Positions 6,450-57,766 of a stretch of 64,000 nucleotides of DNA are shown in pieces. The stretch spans positions 98,283 through 162,282 of the forward strand of contig JACPTB010000002.1 in assembly GCA_016192995.1 (NCBI GenBank). Reading direction: 5' to 3'. Under the pieces are notes generated by a model. It was given only the letters and a program-made list of their open reading frames with translations. It was not told where the DNA came from and ran no database searches. The stretch's first letter is position 1. Every line of letters begins with the position of its first letter. A program made the position numbers and the translations under genes. Source of the stretch: Candidatus Woesearchaeota archaeon. GTDB taxonomy: Archaea > Nanobdellota > Nanobdellia > Woesearchaeales > DSVV01.

Positions 6450-6455
6450 TATTTA

Positions 6456-6632
6456 GAGAACTTTGCAAAATTATGGTTACTGCCAATTTCGTGAGCATTT
6501 TCGAAATATTTATCGGGCAATTTTCGAGGTTCCTTGCCGACAGGCAAGTCTTATAATCCCGATCTTTAGTCGAGATTATATTTATAGAGAGAAAATTGCT
6601 TTGTTTAACAAAGATCTCAATGCGAACTGGCT
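6456..6632 (+). mobile_element. MITE-like repeat, family 1, copy A (degenerate right end, nested insertion in core loop)
   Basis: left end GAGAACTTTGCAAAATTATGGTTACTGCC shared with copies at 43079 and 48447; internal hairpin core 6517-6599 interrupted by ~53-nt insert. Confidence 0.7.
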
Positions 6633-11864: not shown

Positions 11865-12021
11865 GTATGTAATAAGTCTTGTATGGTTTTAGCGCCAGTT
11901 CAGCTTTTGAAGTGTGTTTCAATTGGATTTTTCTCTCTGGAACTCCGAAAAATCCCCAAAATGTATTTAAGAAGAGCTTCACAAAAGTAGGCGCTAAAAC
12001 CCCAGACGACTTATTACATAC
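11865..12021 (-). mobile_element. MITE-like element, family 2, copy B (157 bp) with TIR and 7-bp TSD
   Basis: TIR GTATGTAATAAGTC / GACTTATTACATAC; flanked by CACAAAA on both sides (11857-11863 and 12022-12028); core hairpin 11925-11955. Confidence 0.75.
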
Positions 12022-33587: not shown

Positions 33588-33843
33588 TACGTAATAAGTC
33601 TGGGGTTTTAGCACCTACTTTTGTGAAGCTGTTCTTATATTTGCTGTGAGGATTTTTCGGGGTTCCTTGCCGATAGGCAAGTCTTATAATCCCAGACGCA
33701 AGCCAAATTATGACTCCTTGATTTATAAGAAAAATCCAATTGAAACACACTTCAAAAGCTGAACTGGCGCTACCTGAATCCGAAGGATCTCAGGGATTAA
33801 AAATAGTAATTTTTAATAAAACCATAAAAGACTTATTACGTAC
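33587..33843 (+). mobile_element. MITE-like element, family 2, copy C (257 bp) with TIR and 8-bp TSD
   Basis: TIR GTACGTAATAAGTCT / AGACTTATTACGTAC; direct repeat GTCGAGTA at 33579-33586 and 33844-33851; core hairpin 33650-33737 carrying a nested insert. Confidence 0.85.
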
Positions 33844-42301: not shown

Positions 42302-43117
42302 ATGTACGAAGAACTATTCCGCGAAATTGGCTTAAGTCCAAACGAAGCTAGAATTTACGAAGCATTGCTCCAAACAGGCGATGCTTCAGTGCAGACTATT
42401 GCAATTAAGGCAAACATTCATCGGAGAAATGCATATGATGCTTTAAGCAGACTTTTAGAAAAAGGATTAATCTCCCAAACCATTCTCAGCAATGAGCAGC
42501 ACTTCAAAGCAACCAATCCAGAACGATTGCTTTCCATGATAAAAGAAAAAGAAGATAAAATAACAAAAGCGCTTCCGGAAATCAAGCAAAAGTTTTTTCA
42601 AAAACAAGAAAAAGAACAAGCATATATCTACAAAGGCATCCAAGGATTCAGAAATTACATGCAGGATATTCTTGATGTTGGCAAAGATGTTTATTGCATT
42701 GGCGCTAAAGGTGGATGGTTTGAACCACGATTAAAAACATTCAGATTTAGATTCTATGAAGAACTCAAAAAAAAGAACGTCAAATGCTACCATTTATTTG
42801 ATGCAGAAATGATGCAACAGCAGAACGAAGCTGAAGGACCTGTACCAGTACATCTCCATGAAGCACGATTTTTACCTGAAAAATATTCCACACACTCAGC
42901 AATTGATATTTTAGATGATCGTGTCATTACTTTCACTGGATTAAATATTAACAAGCTTGATGATGATGTCACTATATTTGTGTTAATAAGCAAAAAACTA
43001 GCTGATGATTACAAAAAATGGTTTTGGCTGATGTGGAATGCAAGTTCCCCAATTGATAAAGGAGAAGAAAAAGCTAAAGAGAACTTTGCAAAATTATGGT
43101 TACTGCCTATTTTGTGA
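42302..43117 (+). CDS. trmB: TrmB-family transcription regulator (paralog 2); last 13 codons MITE-derived
   Basis: REIGLSPNEARIYEALLQTGDASVQTIAIKANIHRRNAYDALSRLLEKGL; C-terminus ENFAKLWLLPIL encoded by MITE copy D. Confidence 0.65.
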   Translation: MYEELFREIGLSPNEARIYEALLQTGDASVQTIAIKANIHRRNAYDALSRLLEKGLISQTILSNEQHFKATNPERLLSMIKEKEDKITKALPEIKQKFFQKQEKEQAYIYKGIQGFRNYMQDILDVGKDVYCIGAKGGWFEPRLKTFRFRFYEELKKKNVKCYHLFDAEMMQQQNEAEGPVPVHLHEARFLPEKYSTHSAIDILDDRVITFTGLNINKLDDDVTIFVLISKKLADDYKKWFWLMWNASSPIDKGEEKAKENFAKLWLLPIL

Positions 43118-43222
43118 GCATTTTCGAAATACTTATCGGGCAATTTTCGGAGTTCCAGAGAGAAAATTGCTTTGTTTAACAAAGATCTCAATGCGAACTG
43201 GCAGTAACCCGAGCTTTGCATT
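43079..43222 (+). mobile_element. MITE-like repeat, family 1, copy D (right end truncated)
   Basis: GAGAACTTTGCAAAATTATGGTTACTGCC ... GGCAGTAACCCGAGCTTTGCA; core hairpin 43140-43170. Confidence 0.75.
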
Positions 43223-47828: not shown

Positions 47829-48446
47829 ATGGCTAGATATGGAAAAATCCAGGTATATACCGGAGATGGAAAAGGAAAAACAACAGCATCATTAGGATTA
47901 GCTCTGAGAACTGTTGGCCAAGGCGGTAAAGTATTTATTGTGCAATTTATGAAAGGCGGCGCATACACCGGTGAATTTATCAGCATCAAAAATTTCCTCC
48001 CAAAGATTGATATTATACAATTTGGAAGGGGCTGTGTTAAAGAAAAAAAACAAATGAAATTATTAGGGATTAATGAAGGAGCAAAATATTTTGATTTTGT
48101 GAGAGAAGATATTGAATGCGGACCTTGCAGATATTGTTTTCTTAATGACCAGGAACAAGTAAAATTCGTGAAAAGCGCTTTTGCCTTAGCGCAGAAGTTA
48201 ACTGCTTCAGAAGATTATGATTTAATTATTCTTGATGAAGTTAATGTAGCATTGAAATTAGGATTTTTGAGCATTGAAGAAGTGCTTGAATTAATGGAAA
48301 AAAAACACCCGCAATTGGAGTTAATAATGACCGGCAGAGATGCCCATGAAAAAGTAATGGAGAAAGCAGATTTAGTTACTGAAATGAAATTAGTCAAGCA
48401 TTATTTCGACAAAGGCACTTCTGCAAGAAGAGGGATTGAGTATTAA
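47829..48446 (+). CDS. cobO: ATP:corrinoid adenosyltransferase (CobO/CobA/BtuR family)
   Basis: VYTGDGKGKTTASLGLALRTVGQGGKVFIVQFMKG P-loop signature. Confidence 0.8.
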   Translation: MARYGKIQVYTGDGKGKTTASLGLALRTVGQGGKVFIVQFMKGGAYTGEFISIKNFLPKIDIIQFGRGCVKEKKQMKLLGINEGAKYFDFVREDIECGPCRYCFLNDQEQVKFVKSAFALAQKLTASEDYDLIILDEVNVALKLGFLSIEEVLELMEKKHPQLELIMTGRDAHEKVMEKADLVTEMKLVKHYFDKGTSARRGIEY

Positions 48447-48608
48447 GAGAACTTTGCAAAATCATGGTTACTGCCTATTTTGTGAGCATTTTCGAAATAC
48501 TTATCGAGCAATTTTCGGAGTTCCAGAGAGAAAATTGCTTTGTTAAAAAGATATCTCAATGCGAACCGGCAGTAACCCGAGCTTTGCGAGTATTTTGCAA
48601 AGTTCTCC
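48447..48608 (+). mobile_element. MITE-like repeat, family 1, copy E (162 bp, intact palindrome)
   Basis: 16-bp perfect TIR GAGAACTTTGCAAAAT / ATTTTGCAAAGTTCTC, inner IR GGTTACTGCC / GGCAGTAACC; core hairpin 48508-48538. Confidence 0.8.
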
Positions 48609-48631
48609 TAAGTTTATGTAGGTTTAAGAAT

Positions 48632-50200
48632 TTAAGCTCTAAAACCAATGGAACTATAAGCATCACAAAATTTTTTAATTCTCCTGTCTTCTTTTTTATT
48701 TTCAGCTGGATTGGTATGACGAGAAACTAAACTAAGTGCCTTACCAAAGTCATCTGAAGAAATTGTTACGCCTGAATAATCTGCTTCAACTAAACCTGAA
48801 AGAGCTTCAAAAGTATCCCTGCTTCCTGCTTTTCGAGCTGCTGCTCTTTGCAAAGCAAAATGTCCTGCGCGATTGCAAATTTCTGCTAATGCTGCAGGGG
48901 TGTAACCTTCAGTAGCTTGCGCTAATGCATGAATAGTAACCTCTGAAGCTAATGGCTTAGCCCGAGTGTGTATTGCTAAAATTGCATCGCGTATTTTAAG
49001 ATCAGGTAATGGAACATGTAAGACATAACCAATTCTTCCAGGGCGCAAAAATCTATGATCAATTAAATAAGGATCATTAGTAGATCCTGATAATAAAATC
49101 CCTGAACGCTGTATCCCTGATAAATTATTCAACCAATTTGAAGTCGCAGCATGTTGTCCATCACTTGAACCATTAGCATCAAAAAGAAGTGCCTCAATAT
49201 CGTCACAATGGATAATAACTTCAGCTCCGGATTTTTCCCTTAAATCCTCAATAGCTGCTAATATTGAACCTTCATCTTCTACACGATTAGGCCGTGAAAG
49301 TTGAGTGCGTTTATCTAAAACTAATTGCATTGCGCTTAAAGGAATAAATAATGTTTTATAATCACCTGTAGCAAGAGCTTCTGCAATAAGGGTTTTGCCT
49401 GTTCCTTTGACACCTGCTAAAACAACTGATTCAGGTTTGCAGCCAAAATAACGTGCAGCATCTTTATTATTTCCTGAAGCAAATAACGTCCATTTCATAA
49501 ATTCTATAATTTCTTCAAGTCCTGCAATATCTTCTGAAGTTACTGCCCTTAATCCGATGCGTGATAAATCCCGGTATAAGGCGTAGATAAGATTTGCATA
49601 AGGATATGGTTTACCATGATTAAGAATGTAAGCTGTTTGAACAACACGCTGGGCAAAATCAAGTTCTCGTATATCATGCTGTTCCCTGATTTCTACTAAT
49701 GCTCTACCATCATAAAGCCAGTTTCCATCTTTTGAGCGTTGAGAAGCTTGTTCTTTGGTAAGAAATTTTCTGCAAACCCATATTCCTGTTGAGCCTGCTT
49801 CTTGAAAACCCCAATCCTTAAGAAGATAACCAATAGTAGTTTCACTTACTCCTGCATTCCAAGTAACATACTTACTCGCTGGTCGTTTGCCACCAAGAGG
49901 GTGAGAACGACATTGAATTTTATTTGGAGCATGAATATATCTTGCTAAATCTTCTAAAGCATCCATCTGCTCCTCAGTTATTCTTGGAAGATCCCAGTGT
50001 GCAATATGCCTGTATTGAAGATATCTATCTTGACCTTCTGATCGAGATTTGCTTACTAAAGGACAACTCAAAGCATCAGGTCTTAATCCACCAATGCTAT
50101 CAATAGCAGAATAAATAATACGATATATAGTTTGCAATACCTCTAGTTTATGAGGATCTAAAACAGTTAAAAGTGGATTGCTTTCATATCCCATACCCAA
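48632..50200 (-). CDS. classic-clade AAA ATPase with ~270-aa N-terminal domain of unknown function; compositionally atypical
   Basis: Walker A GVKGTGKT, Walker B IIHCDDIE, second region of homology FLRPGRIGYVLHVPLPD; A/G/R/L-rich unlike neighbours. Confidence 0.6.
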   Translation of the reverse strand: MGMGYESNPLLTVLDPHKLEVLQTIYRIIYSAIDSIGGLRPDALSCPLVSKSRSEGQDRYLQYRHIAHWDLPRITEEQMDALEDLARYIHAPNKIQCRSHPLGGKRPASKYVTWNAGVSETTIGYLLKDWGFQEAGSTGIWVCRKFLTKEQASQRSKDGNWLYDGRALVEIREQHDIRELDFAQRVVQTAYILNHGKPYPYANLIYALYRDLSRIGLRAVTSEDIAGLEEIIEFMKWTLFASGNNKDAARYFGCKPESVVLAGVKGTGKTLIAEALATGDYKTLFIPLSAMQLVLDKRTQLSRPNRVEDEGSILAAIEDLREKSGAEVIIHCDDIEALLFDANGSSDGQHAATSNWLNNLSGIQRSGILLSGSTNDPYLIDHRFLRPGRIGYVLHVPLPDLKIRDAILAIHTRAKPLASEVTIHALAQATEGYTPAALAEICNRAGHFALQRAAARKAGSRDTFEALSGLVEADYSGVTISSDDFGKALSLVSRHTNPAENKKEDRRIKKFCDAYSSIGFRA

Positions 50201-50330
50201 AGGGAGATTAACTATTATTTAAAAAATAGCATTAATTATGTAACTACTAAATTAAGACAATTATAATAACTTACATTTTATAAACGAAATAATCATCCCA
50301 AAATTAAAAAGTAGCTGAAAAGGCAATGCT

Positions 50331-52361
50331 ATGCCCCTTGAAAAAGTCATTAAACGGAATGGTGAAACTGTAGTTTTTGATCCAAAAAAGATCACAGATG
50401 CATTGTACAAAGCAGCGCAAGCTATTGGAGGAACTGATGAAGAGCTCTCTAAAGCATTAACAAAAAAGATTGTAGCAAAGATAGAAGAATTATTTCCTGA
50501 CAAAATCCCCCATGTTGAAGATGTTCAGGATGTTGTTGAGCGTGTTTTAATAGAAGACAATCATGTAAAAACAGCAAAAGCATATATTTTGTATAGGGAA
50601 CGCCAAAAAAATATCCGGGAGGTAAAACAGTCATTAGTAGGAGGATATGTTGATAAGCGCTTTACTATTAATGCATTAAAAATTCTCAAAGAACGATTAT
50701 TAATGAAAAAAGAAGATGGCGCTGTTGAAACGCCTGAAGATATGTTTAGAAGAGTAGCAAAAGAAATAGCAAAAGCAGATAAACAATATGATAATGAGCC
50801 AAACCTGAAAGAAACTGAAGATAAGTTTTTCGAGTGTTTAAACAAGCTTGATTTTTTGCCAAACTCGCCCTGCTTAATGAACGCAGGAACCAAAAATCAG
50901 CAGTTAATTTCATGCTATGTCCTACCAATTGAAGACAGCACTGAAAGTATTTATACAACATTAAAAAATGCTGCAATGGTGCATCGTACAGGTTCAGGAA
51001 CAGGCTTTTCTTTTTCCAATTTAAGACCAAAAGAAGATACGATCGATGATTCTCGTGGATTTTCAGCAGGGCCAATTCCATTTATGCATGTCTATGATAA
51101 ATCAACAGAAATAATCAAGAAAACTGGTTTAAGGCGTGGCGCAAACATGGCAGTGTTGCGTGTTGATCACCCCAATATCCTCGATTTTATTACCGCAAAA
51201 GAAAATCCCCATCACTTGAGAAACTTCAACATCTCTGTTGGCATTACAAAAGAATTTATGGATGCATTAGACAACAGAAAACGATATCCATTAATTAATC
51301 CGCGAACAAAGCAGGAAGTTCGTTTATTGCCTGCTAAAGAGGTCTTTGATTTAATTGCAACAATGTCGTGGAAAAATGGTGAGCCAGGAGTTATTTTCCT
51401 TGATACTATTAATGAGAAGAACCCTGTTCCTGAACTTGGTGAAATAAAAACAACCTCTGCCTGCGGAGAAGTGCCTTTGCTTGAATATGAAGCATGCCCG
51501 CTTGGCTCAATAAACTTATCTAATATGGTGCAAGGAGGCAGGGTCAATTTAGCTGCATTGCGGGACACTGCGTGGATTGCAGTGCATTTTCTTGATAATG
51601 TTATTGATGTAAATAAATACACCTTAAAAGACAGTGAAAAAATAACTAATGATAATAGAAAAATAGGAGTTGGAGTTATGGGTTTTGCAGATATGCTGTA
51701 TCAGTTAGGGGTTCCTTATAATAGTGAAGAAGCAATAAAAGTAGCAGAAAGAATCATGAAATTTATTCGTGATGAAGCAAGATTAGCTTCAGAAGCTCTA
51801 GCAAAAAAAAGAGGAGTATTTGCAAATTATGAAAAAAGCATATATGCAAAAAAAGGAATAAAGCAAAGAAATGCGACAACAACTGCTATTGCGCCAACAG
51901 GAACAATCTCATTAATTGCTGATTGTTCTTCAGGCATTGAACCGAATTTCGCTTTAAGTTACATGAAAAAAATCACCGGTGGGGATGAGTTATTATATGT
52001 TAATAAGCATTTAAAAAGCGAATTATTGAAAAGAGAGATTTATTCTGAAGATTTAATGAAAGAAATTGCATCAAAAGGATCACTCCAATCATTTTTGGAT
52101 TTAGCATCAGAAATCAGAAAAGTGTTTGTTATTAGCCATGAAATACCTGCAGAATATCATGTATTAATCCAAGCAGCATTTCAAAAATATTGCGATAATG
52201 CAGTTTCAAAGAGCGTTAATTTAGAGTACACTTCAAGCAAAGAAGATGTCGTTAAAACCTTCAAGCTTGCTTACAAACTAGGGTGTAAAGGAATAACCAT
52301 TTATCGAGATAGAAGCAGAGAAGATCAGATTTTAACACTATTAGGGGGAGAAGCAATATGA
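50331..52361 (+). CDS. nrdJ: class II ribonucleotide reductase (short paralog, no intein)
   Basis: ATP-cone VIKRNGETVVFDPKKITDALYKA; TSACGEVPLLEYEACPLGSINL; GCKGITIYRDRSR. Confidence 0.8.
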   Translation: MPLEKVIKRNGETVVFDPKKITDALYKAAQAIGGTDEELSKALTKKIVAKIEELFPDKIPHVEDVQDVVERVLIEDNHVKTAKAYILYRERQKNIREVKQSLVGGYVDKRFTINALKILKERLLMKKEDGAVETPEDMFRRVAKEIAKADKQYDNEPNLKETEDKFFECLNKLDFLPNSPCLMNAGTKNQQLISCYVLPIEDSTESIYTTLKNAAMVHRTGSGTGFSFSNLRPKEDTIDDSRGFSAGPIPFMHVYDKSTEIIKKTGLRRGANMAVLRVDHPNILDFITAKENPHHLRNFNISVGITKEFMDALDNRKRYPLINPRTKQEVRLLPAKEVFDLIATMSWKNGEPGVIFLDTINEKNPVPELGEIKTTSACGEVPLLEYEACPLGSINLSNMVQGGRVNLAALRDTAWIAVHFLDNVIDVNKYTLKDSEKITNDNRKIGVGVMGFADMLYQLGVPYNSEEAIKVAERIMKFIRDEARLASEALAKKRGVFANYEKSIYAKKGIKQRNATTTAIAPTGTISLIADCSSGIEPNFALSYMKKITGGDELLYVNKHLKSELLKREIYSEDLMKEIASKGSLQSFLDLASEIRKVFVISHEIPAEYHVLIQAAFQKYCDNAVSKSVNLEYTSSKEDVVKTFKLAYKLGCKGITIYRDRSREDQILTLLGGEAI

Positions 52362-52915
52362 TATTGAGCGATATTGATATTAAAAAGGAATTGGAAAAAG
52401 GAGACTTGCTTATTGAAAAAATGACCTTCAACCAAATTGGCCCTTGTTCAGTTGATTTAACCCTTGGCAATACCTTTATGGTTTTCAAACATGCTGATAT
52501 TACCCATGTTGATCCAAAAAAGATTGATCGGGAATCATTAATGTCAGAAACAATTAAAGAAGAGGATAAGCCATTTATCATTCACCCAGGAGAGTTCGTG
52601 CTTGGTGCAACAAAAGAACGAGTAAGAGTTCCGAGTTATTTGGTAGGAAGATTAGATGGAAGAAGTTCTTGGGGAAGATTAGGTATTATTGTGCATTCAA
52701 CTGCTGGTTCTGTGCATCCTGGCTGGGATGGCCAGCTTACCTTGGAGATTGCAAATATCTCAAAACTCCCTGTTGCATTATATCCAGGAATGAAAATATG
52801 CCAGATTAGCTTCCAGCAACTAACATCACCAGCAGAAGAGCCTTATCATAAAAAGCAGAATGCCAAATACATTAATCAAGTAGGCCCAGGAGCAACCAGA
52901 GTAGGAGAAGATTAA
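52358..52915 (+). CDS. dcd: dCTP deaminase
   Basis: VDLTLGNTF, GRLDGRSSWGRLGIIVH, GQLTLEIAN; overlaps nrdJ stop by 4 nt. Confidence 0.85.
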   Translation: MILSDIDIKKELEKGDLLIEKMTFNQIGPCSVDLTLGNTFMVFKHADITHVDPKKIDRESLMSETIKEEDKPFIIHPGEFVLGATKERVRVPSYLVGRLDGRSSWGRLGIIVHSTAGSVHPGWDGQLTLEIANISKLPVALYPGMKICQISFQQLTSPAEEPYHKKQNAKYINQVGPGATRVGED

Positions 52916-52941: not shown

Positions 52942-53463
52942 ATGGCATGGCATGAACATCTCCGTAGAGACCTTAGGGAGCATCAAGAATTAAGACTTGC
53001 CTTAATAGATAACCTTGAAGCAGTTATTGAAGAAGATGCAAAGGCAATCGAAGTATTTACTGAAGATAATGTAGATCTAAGGATAACTCAAAAAAGAGTA
53101 CGACAAGACTTACCAGATGATTTTTCTTCTGATCAAACAAGGTATTCTCTTGCAGCGGTTTATTTTGCCAATGCTAGATATTTTGGAATAGCACCAGATC
53201 ATAGAAACGATAGACTCCAACTAGTTATTCATCGAAAAACTCCAGTAAATAACATAGCAACCTATGACTATGAAAGTAATGATCCTTATCCCCATGTAAT
53301 AAAAATTCCGCATACTGATTTCAAGAAGGTGAAAGATTTTTTAGAATCATTAGATGCAGAAACAAGACATGCTGTCCACTACAATATGATAGGAAGAAAT
53401 CGAAAAACAACTGGAAATCTAGCAACAAGAGCAGAGCTAGTAATTACAGAAACTATAGACTAG
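52942..53463 (+). CDS. hypothetical protein (possibly N-terminal part of a longer interrupted gene)
   Basis: 173 aa; frame stays open through the TAG at 53461-53463 for 46 more codons into the 53602 ORF. Confidence 0.35.
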   Translation: MAWHEHLRRDLREHQELRLALIDNLEAVIEEDAKAIEVFTEDNVDLRITQKRVRQDLPDDFSSDQTRYSLAAVYFANARYFGIAPDHRNDRLQLVIHRKTPVNNIATYDYESNDPYPHVIKIPHTDFKKVKDFLESLDAETRHAVHYNMIGRNRKTTGNLATRAELVITETID

Positions 53464-53601: not shown

Positions 53602-54027
53602 ATGCAGCTATATTGGTTGATACGATTGCCAATAAGAGAAAAACCACAAAACACTGAGGTATTTAAAGAATTAAGAACAATGCTAAAACAGGTAACAGGC
53701 ATTGCTGAAGATATAAATACATATTTGAAAAGAACAAGAATATTGTATCTTGTAAACCAAGCAAGAAGAAGAGTAAAAGAATTTTATTCAGGAAAGAAAC
53801 CTTATTCATTACCATTGGAAAAAAGAGCTTTTGAAACAAGACAATATGCTTTAGAAAAGTTACCTTATGAAGTTCCTGAAAGATATGGTGTCATATTGGA
53901 TGGAGCAACCATCACAAGATTCGCTTCACAACTCGATTATGTAGCTTTAAAATTAATAACACAAACACCAGAATTATTATATGCTGAAGCGCAACAGAGA
54001 GAAGCTGAACTAAGAAAAGTTGCATAA
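53602..54027 (+). CDS. hypothetical protein (possibly C-terminal part of interrupted gene)
   Basis: 141 aa in the same frame as the upstream ORF. Confidence 0.35.
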   Translation: MQLYWLIRLPIREKPQNTEVFKELRTMLKQVTGIAEDINTYLKRTRILYLVNQARRRVKEFYSGKKPYSLPLEKRAFETRQYALEKLPYEVPERYGVILDGATITRFASQLDYVALKLITQTPELLYAEAQQREAELRKVA

Positions 54028-57608: not shown

Positions 57609-57766
57609 CTCAGGTGAAAATGTAGTTTTTGGCATCTTTTGGTGAAGCTCTTCTTAATTTTACCTTGAGGATTTTTCGGAGTGCCAGAGAGAAAAATCCA
57701 ATCGAAATACTCTTCAAGAGCTGAACTGATGCCAAAACCGAGGCTATGCCGAGATTTTCACCTGAG
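57609..57766 (+). mobile_element. MITE-like element, family 2 variant, copy F (158 bp)
   Basis: 13-bp TIR CTCAGGTGAAAAT / ATTTTCACCTGAG; core hairpin 57669-57699 GGATTTTTCGGAGTGCCAGAGAGAAAAATCC. Confidence 0.75.

Follow-up and report, generated by a model that had tools for sequence, protein, structure and literature searches.

The 64,000-nucleotide (nt) stretch of Candidatus Woesearchaeota DNA analysed here (hereafter the window) carries, between a cobO gene and a ribonucleotide reductase (RNR) gene, an AAA ATPase gene at 48632-50200 on the minus strand, and the question raised by this locus is whether the ATPase is a foreign or mobile gene, a partner of the surrounding RNR/cobO cluster or a native protein with a task of its own. 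The gene is real and native to this Woesearchaeota (DPANN) archaeon, and its product is a single-module AAA ATPase fused to a domain of about 216 residues without detectable relatives. On balance, and with some reserve, it is regarded here as probably a native, vertically inherited, type-I (single-ring) ATPase of the classic AAA clade that serves as a non-canonical protein remodeller of Woesearchaeota.

The program-made list of open reading frames (ORFs) gives a frame of 522 codons for this gene. A database protein of 520 amino acids (aa; P0001), annotated as 'ATP-binding protein [Candidatus Woesearchaeota archaeon]' and encoded on a 189-kb contig, is identical to the product and starts at ATG 50194. 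Upstream of this codon lies a TATA-like box (TTTAAATA), a putative archaeal promoter which, judging from the usual archaeal spacing between TATA box and start, would yield a leaderless mRNA; as the spacing fits such a transcript, the ATG may be favoured over the TTG at which the mechanical frame begins. No hydrophobic segment was found in the protein (maximum Kyte-Doolittle value, KD19, of 1.15); a membrane protein was rejected on this ground, and a cytosolic location is predicted.

The C-terminal part of the protein matched Pfam AAA (PF00004) with 47.4 bits against a cutoff of 21.2 (E 3.4e-12) and AAA_lid_3 (PF17862) with 33.7 bits against a cutoff of 27.2 (E 2.6e-8), and its top PDB sequence matches in phmmer were the D2 module of p97/VCP (about 1e-42, residues 217-498). 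The full-length AlphaFold2 (AF2) model, with a predicted local distance difference test score (pLDDT) of 84.8 and a predicted template-modelling score (pTM) of 0.81, contains the AAA alpha/beta fold with its helical lid, and Foldseek matched it to p97 D2 with an E-value of about 1e-17 and a target-normalised TM of 0.74-0.76 for the isolated D2. All motifs quoted in the preliminary description of this DNA, which had been made from the letters and the ORF list, are present (GVKGTGKT, IIHCDD and RFLRPGRIGY...VPLPD). In the second region of homology (SRH), GSTND occupies residues 370-374 and RFLRPGRIGY residues 381-390; the sensor-1 stretch aligns to 'ATNRP' of p97, and RFLR(384)PGR(387)IGY to 'ILRPGRLD' of its D2. 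The Walker A motif, the sensor-1 asparagine and Arg387 are invariant across the family, and Arg384 is kept in 10 of its 23 members; the ATP-binding elements (Walker A, sensor 1 and at least one arginine finger) appear intact. In the NCBIfam ranking, the CDC48 model (TIGR01243) scored 102 bits against a cutoff of 803, PAN 94 against 500 and FtsH (TIGR01241) 86 against 600, which is 5-10-fold under the curated cutoffs, with each model covering a single AAA module only. Since the Pfam AAA and lid models score above their cutoffs and these three below, the protein belongs to the classic AAA clade but lies outside the CDC48, PAN and FtsH families. Outside its own family, the protein finds its top database matches in Cdc48 proteins (30-36% identity), and these cover only 44-50% of the query.

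Within this module, the positions that characterise processive unfoldases are altered. Instead of the hhhhDE Walker B motif with its catalytic glutamate, the protein has IIHCDD, and the family census gave DD in 21 of 23 members, DE in one and ED in one. Pore loop 1 lacks the aromatic-hydrophobic-glycine pattern, reading K-R-T where p97 has W-F-G; a tyrosine or phenylalanine is present in 10 of the 23 members and the aromatic residue is missing in 13, an arginine standing there in this protein. A charged, mainly acidic stretch follows, and the pLDDT of the AF2 model is low in this part. Furthermore, the DGF/DGM position of inter-subunit signalling reads SGI ('LSGI' here against 'MDGM' in p97). 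Because of the Asp-Asp Walker B motif, the missing pore aromatic and the altered signalling motif, the protein is probably a slow, non-threading remodeller or an ATP-dependent clamp and not a processive unfoldase.

N-domains are what functionally defines AAA ATPases, and here the domain is of an unfamiliar kind. It had been put at about 270 aa and said to match nothing that could be named; the size has to be reduced to about 216 aa, as the homology to p97 D2 starts at residue 217, and the lack of matches stands. No match was found in Pfam, either for this protein or for all 23 family N-domains scanned one by one, nor in NCBIfam, PHROGs or PADLOC, nor among PDB sequences (a family-profile search included), and the domain model matched no viral structure in BFVD at E below 0.01. 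A standard CDC48, PAN or FtsH N-domain, the finding that would have spoken against the earlier description, did not appear in these searches. When modelled alone with a 23-sequence alignment, the domain reached a pLDDT of 90.5 and a pTM of 0.89 in AF2, with a predicted alpha+beta fold of long antiparallel strands and four main helices. Two simpler origins were considered and rejected, namely an internal duplication (hhalign of the two halves, probability 0.3%) and a degenerate D1 module (long antiparallel strands and no Rossmann-like core in the AF2 model). The domain is basic, with an isoelectric point of 8.7 here and 8.7-9.95 across the near subfamily, and the AAA half is mostly acidic. At the other end of the protein, the helical extension ends in ...SIGFRA, and distant members add up to about 40 residues beyond this point; thus, there is no penultimate tyrosine of an HbYX motif.

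The family was delineated by several searches of unequal sensitivity. Eight full-length orthologues with 43-100% identity were obtained (P0001 being identical and P0002-P0008 at 43-63%). When the N-domain by itself was compared exhaustively (phmmer) with 1.84 billion cluster representatives, 21 clusters (50% identity) emerged, almost all of them proteins of 505-600 aa that share the architecture of N-domain, AAA core, lid and C-terminal FC..Y..IGF. Members that carry names are assigned only to Candidatus Woesearchaeota or Candidatus Nanoarchaeia. A profile search with 23 members added one new member only (P0141), the rest of its matches being Cdc48 and FtsH. Pattern scans built on a 6-member alignment found one locus in 185,579 species-representative genomes, two in metagenomes of the Joint Genome Institute (JGI) and none in viral contigs, so few loci that they sample the taxonomic breadth poorly. 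A word-indexed protein search overlooked even the identical protein when the N-terminal 257 aa served as query, and with the family profile it overlooked most members; family counts from it are therefore lower bounds. Judging from these sequence searches, the family is real and conserved, very rare and apparently restricted to DPANN archaea; no paper describing it was found in the literature.

The composition and rate of change of the gene bear directly on its origin. The preliminary description had called the gene compositionally foreign, holding that a composition without statistical deviation would disprove this, and the GC and codon-usage test that it named was run. The window has a GC content of 33.5%, and that of the ORF is 0.376 as compared with 0.342 +/- 0.028 for 49 window ORFs (z about +1.2), with several ORFs being higher. 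The excess lies wholly in codon positions 1 and 2: the GC content of second positions (0.434) is the highest in the window, owing to a protein that is rich in alanine and arginine and poor in lysine, whereas that of third positions (GC3, 0.174) is below average (z about -1.9). The log-likelihood of the synonymous codons under the usage of the rest of the window is ordinary (z +0.2). Synonymous sites thus do not deviate, and the claim falls by its own standard. The protein had also been described as rich in Ala, Gly, Arg and Leu, which is borne out for alanine (z +2.35) and arginine (z +1.9) but not for glycine (z +0.6) and leucine (z +0.1).

The decisive test is given by synonymous divergence (dS) from the syntenic relatives (loci L004 and L007), which is 1.29-1.35 for the AAA gene as against 1.33-1.55 for nrdJ2, 1.17 for cobO and 1.24 for the dCTP deaminase gene (dcd); since dS is the same as in the neighbouring genes, the AAA gene has shared the history of the locus. 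Horizontal transfer from a foreign source was rejected on the basis of these values together with the host-like GC3 and codon usage, and the gene is native, vertically inherited and chromosomal. What sets it apart is its nonsynonymous divergence (dN), which is 0.31 against 0.04-0.09 for the neighbours, with dN/dS of 0.23 against 0.03-0.07; the protein has 62% identity to its counterparts in L004 and L007, and the neighbours 85-94%. A dN/dS of 0.23 between orthologues indicates purifying selection. By region, dN/dS is 0.34 in the N-domain, 0.33-0.44 in the C-terminal extension, 0.14-0.16 in the AAA core and 0.07-0.09 in the lid; constraint acts throughout the gene, and its putative recognition parts, the N-domain and the C-terminal extension, change fast. 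A lineage-specific acceleration of the window copy was rejected, its identity to outgroups being the same as that of P0002 and P0003. The rate comparison took in three sequences, which are too few to decide between adaptation and relaxed constraint. The features of the gene and its surroundings are collected in Table 1.

Table 1. Positions of the ATPase gene, its motifs and its neighbours within the window (residue numbers refer to the 520-aa product).
Feature	Position	Strand	Basis or remark
AAA ATPase coding sequence	48632..50194	-	520 aa + stop; mechanical ORF runs 2 codons further, to TTG 50200
TATA-like box TTTAAATA	50217..50224	-	centre ~26 nt upstream of ATG 50194; read directly from sequence
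Family-specific N-terminal alpha+beta domain, residues 1-216	49547..50194	-	AF2 model; family conservation
Conserved N-terminal NPL motif	50168-50179	-	family alignments
Conserved VEIRE motif	49682-49696	-	family alignments
AAA alpha/beta nucleotide-binding core, residues 257-395	49010..49426	-	Pfam PF00004, Foldseek to p97 D2
Walker A GVKGTGKT, residues 261-268	49391..49414	-	G264, G266, K267 invariant, 23 family members
Pore-loop-1 position LDKRTQ, residues 293-298	49301..49318	-	aligned to p97 D2 'TMWFGESE'
Walker B IIHCDD, residues 327-332	49199..49216	-	Asp in place of catalytic Glu
Second region of homology	49025..49087	-	sensor-1 GSTND (N373) and RFLRPGRIGY with Arg384, Arg387
AAA lid, residues 419-453	48836..48940	-	Pfam PF17862
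C-terminal helical extension	48635..48835	-	helices 461-517 in AF2 model; conserved terminal FC(D)xY..IGF motif
MITE-like element, ~165 bp	48443..48611	.	fills convergent spacer between cobO stop and AAA stop; not part of gene
Class II NrdJ, 1415 aa	43483-47730		large intein with homing-endonuclease-like region; TIGR02504 488 bits vs cutoff 400
CobO/CobA	47829-48446		CobA_CobO match 1.4e-56
Second NrdJ (nrdJ2), 676 aa	50331-52361		without intein; TIGR02504 648 bits vs cutoff 400
dCTP deaminase (dcd)	52358-52915		part of the RNR/cobO cluster

The 3' end of the gene had been said to abut a miniature inverted-repeat transposable element (MITE), and this element is real. It is short and non-coding, occurs in multiple copies with presence/absence polymorphism and has terminal inverted repeats of 20 nt (48443-48462 and 48592-48611, 95% complementary); 20 nt separate its right arm from the AAA stop codon, and its left arm overlaps the cobO stop codon. 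In L007 the site is empty, with the cobO and AAA stop codons 6 nt apart, and the element was therefore inserted in the lineage of the window. Its flanks (..TTA|..|TAA..) are compatible with a target-site duplication of TA or TTA, which is too short to tell from chance in DNA of 33% GC. As the element lies on one side of the gene only, it is uninformative on gene mobility. Six copies occur in the window, at 43077-43219, 48443-48611, 6454-6631, 11885-12007 (minus strand), 33598-33772 and 57638-57739; that at 43077-43219 is 95% identical to the element beside the AAA gene, and the other four have diverged. The two 95%-identical copies, which are direct, bracket the pair of nrdJ with intein and cobO, and not the AAA gene. 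The conserved core of the MITE family is TTTTCGGAGTTCC..AGAGAGAAAA..GAACTGGC, and the copies at 6454 and 33598 share an extra insertion of about 57 nt beginning with the hairpin TTGCCGACAGGCAAG. Neither Rfam nor tRNA scans of the window gave a match to the repeat.

The position inside an RNR/cobO cluster, from which a chaperone or activase for RNR or corrinoid handling had been suggested, was described correctly; nevertheless, the adjacency is inherited synteny, found in the two closest relatives only (L004 and L007, 62% identity) and in none of the 10 further independent neighbourhoods. Transcription of the AAA gene converges with that of cobO and diverges from that of nrdJ2 (130-nt spacer), so that the gene is not co-transcribed with either. 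The two NrdJ paralogues, both class II and hence adenosylcobalamin (AdoCbl)-dependent, lie 2.6 kb apart, and nrdJ2 shares 93-94% identity with its orthologues in L004 and L007. No partner gene is common to the 11 independent neighbourhoods. Besides nrdJ, cobO and dcd, which adjoin the gene in the clade of the window only, the neighbours are purD (P0004), two ParA/MinD genes (P0006), Nuc_deoxyrib_tr, HIT and HAD with cobO 8 kb away (P0007), genes without known function (P0008), a Cdc6-like gene and a methyltransferase (P0141), glycosyltransferases (the P0122 cluster), TFIIS followed by Tmk, ThyX and dCMP deaminase within 6 kb (P0125), SecDF, NUDIX and a phosphoribosyltransferase (P0127), an FKBP-like gene, an XPD helicase and ribosomal protein S15 (the P0005 cluster), and FKBP and Dus (P0139). 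All these contexts consist of chromosomal housekeeping genes. Genes of nucleotide metabolism are found in 4-5 of these 11 contexts, a lead that by a rough estimate is not clearly above chance for a gene-poor DPANN genome.

Further observations were made on the neighbourhoods. In two of the 11 lineages, among distantly related members, a gene for an FKBP-type peptidyl-prolyl isomerase immediately precedes the AAA gene on the same strand (L018 90-419, a strong Pfam match at 3.7e-34; L017 5464-6411 and L012 110-1084, borderline at 2.8e-4), which may reflect a link to protein folding or chance. In the P0141 and P0005 clusters, an XPD-type helicase gene (DEAD_2/Helicase_C_2) follows 0.4-2 kb downstream of the AAA gene and is encoded on the other strand (L009 13439-15109, L012 3168-5015 and L017 8495-10342). 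In the window, the ORFs at 52942-53463 and 53602-54027, which have no family match, together represent one gene that encodes 367 aa in L004, the former its N-terminal and the latter its C-terminal part; hence, this gene is split or disrupted in the window. The two parts have 31% and 41% identity to the L004 gene, as against 85-94% for the adjacent nrdJ2 and dcd, and it is the second fast-evolving gene of the locus.

Among characterised proteins, the closest likeness is to the D2 module of Cdc48/p97/VAT, which is the top match in both sequence and structure over residues 217-498 (25% identity in structure-based alignments) and shares Walker A, sensor 1, the SRH 'LRPGR', AAA_lid_3 and a C-terminal helical extension. 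However, the present protein has one AAA module instead of two, lacks the N-domain of double-psi barrel and beta-clam, and carries DD in place of DE in Walker B, K-R-T in place of W-F-G and 'LSGI' in place of 'MDGM'; the N-terminal double-psi barrel and tandem D1-D2 modules that define the CDC48/VCP family (TIGR01243) are absent. With PAN/Rpt it shares a single classic AAA module with lid (NCBIfam 78-94 bits, far under the curated cutoffs of 500-750), but it has no coiled coil, OB ring or HbYX C-terminus, and no proteasome gene is linked to it in the neighbourhoods. It differs from FtsH in having no transmembrane helices and no Peptidase_M41 match. IetA/IteA is likewise a classic-AAA-like ATPase with a family-specific N-terminal region and shows weak similarity to the SRH and lid in hidden Markov model searches; the score of 25.5 bits nevertheless falls far below the cutoff of 510, the gene has NrdJ and CobO as neighbours and lacks an IetS partner, and inheritance is vertical. 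In general design only, the protein resembles the type-I AAA proteins Bcs1, Msp1, Pch2/TRIP13 and Rubisco activase/CbbX, which combine one AAA ring with a small family-specific N-domain for a narrow client; in Rubisco activase and Bcs1, Walker B or the pore likewise departs from the canonical form. What is new is an uncharacterised AAA subfamily with an orphan N-domain, which is an ordinary kind of novelty.

From this material, the following course may be proposed for a non-canonical remodeller. The family would have arisen from Cdc48-D2/PAN-like stock, in which the usual N-domain would have given way to a lineage-specific alpha+beta domain of about 216 aa, with a conserved helical extension gained at the C-terminus. 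The protein would form a hexameric ring, as its relatives do, with an ATP cycle that may drive the remodelling or disassembly of a protein client, and the fast-evolving N-domain and C-terminal extension would recognise that client. Several points weigh against such a remodeller, whose hexamer formation and ATPase activity are predicted from homology and for which no client emerged from the analysis. Aspartate in place of the Walker B glutamate might abolish hydrolysis, leaving an ATP-binding switch and not a motor; the Lys-Tyr/Phe pore loop of 10 of the 23 members may mean that the ancestral family threads and that this copy is degenerate or functionally shifted; and the high dN/dS could stem from relaxed constraint instead of co-evolution with a client.

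Four rival explanations were weighed and are weaker than the remodeller reading. The least unlikely among them, although still improbable, makes of the protein a hydrolysis-dead or very slow pseudo-ATPase, whose ring would be a scaffold or switch serving as a nucleotide-dependent assembly platform. The replacement of the Walker B glutamate in 21 of 23 members, the SGI at the DGF/DGM position and the degenerate pore loop 1 all point in this direction, but the strict conservation of Walker A, the sensor-1 asparagine and Arg387 does not, aspartate can still serve as a general base, and within the protein only the lid has a lower dN/dS than the AAA core. Such conservation of the motifs and the core is to be expected of a protein in which the nucleotide cycle is important. 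A dedicated chaperone or reactivase for the AdoCbl-dependent RNR, or for enzymes of deoxynucleotide metabolism more broadly, in which the AAA ring would release damaged cofactor or aid its loading with CobO, is suggested by the place of the gene between cobO and nrdJ2, by both RNRs being class II NrdJ, by the retention of this arrangement in L004 and L007 and by the nucleotide-metabolism genes near the distant members P0007, P0125, P0004 (purD) and P0127. It is nonetheless held to be decidedly unlikely: relatives of 62% identity whose flanks are 85-94% identical provide no independent evidence of association, six of the 11 contexts have no nucleotide gene nearby, the recurrence in the others is not clearly above chance by the rough estimate given above, and the orientation leaves no operon with the neighbours. 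The AdoCbl reactivases known to us (DdrAB, GdrAB and EutA) are, moreover, not AAA proteins. A more specific version, less likely again, would see a DPANN-specific AAA reactivase or assembly chaperone for the AdoCbl-dependent RNR or, more broadly, for enzymes of deoxynucleotide metabolism, whose basic, fast-evolving N-domain would dock the client and whose degenerate pore and Asp-Asp Walker B motif would serve non-threading cofactor release with CobO; to our knowledge, neither a reactivase of class II RNR nor a B12 reactivation system with an AAA protein has been described.

Equally doubtful is a proteasome-associated ATPase that would replace or supplement PAN/Cdc48 in delivering substrates to the 20S proteasome of these reduced archaea. 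The automatic JGI name of two members is '26S proteasome regulatory subunit', the PAN score of 94 bits nearly equals the 102 of CDC48, and a single AAA ring of PAN-like size would suit this role; yet that score stands against a cutoff of 500, the AF2 model has no coiled coil or OB domain, the HbYX docking motif and, in this copy, the pore-loop aromatic are absent, no proteasome gene occurs in any neighbourhood, and the family is far too rare for a general activator of Nanobdellota. Least probable of all is a horizontally acquired, MITE-associated mobile or anti-virus defence ATPase (IetA-like or similar), a reading that the preliminary description had left open and that is already largely refuted. 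Weak matches to PADLOC IetA (5e-8) and NCBIfam IteA (25.5 bits), evolution faster than that of the neighbours, a MITE 20 nt from the stop codon and the rare and patchy distribution of the family could be cited for it. However, the IetA/IteA match covers only the generic SRH and lid (residues 357-451; 25.5 bits, cutoff 510), neither an IetS-like protease nor any other defence gene adjoins in the 11 housekeeping contexts, viral contigs yielded no relatives and BFVD no match for the N-domain, and dS and codon usage indicate vertical inheritance. As for the MITE, it stands on one side only at a site that is empty in L007, which has the same gene, and the near-identical copies flank the nrdJ-intein and cobO pair and not the AAA gene.

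The practical value of the finding is mainly negative: the gene is neither foreign nor mobile, and a tie to the RNR/cobO cluster is not demonstrable. One more entry among the uncharacterised AAA subfamilies is a modest gain and not a surprise, and no specific process is indicated. The interest lies in an N-domain whose fold is predicted with confidence and for which no relative could be detected; the domain is limited to a few DPANN lineages, and the protein that carries it has a dN/dS about 3-9 times that of the adjoining metabolic genes. Such archaea are thought to be episymbionts with minimal proteomes; a remodeller that is retained and rapidly changing in them would be a candidate for a lineage-specific process, which may be host interaction, client quality control or enzyme reactivation.

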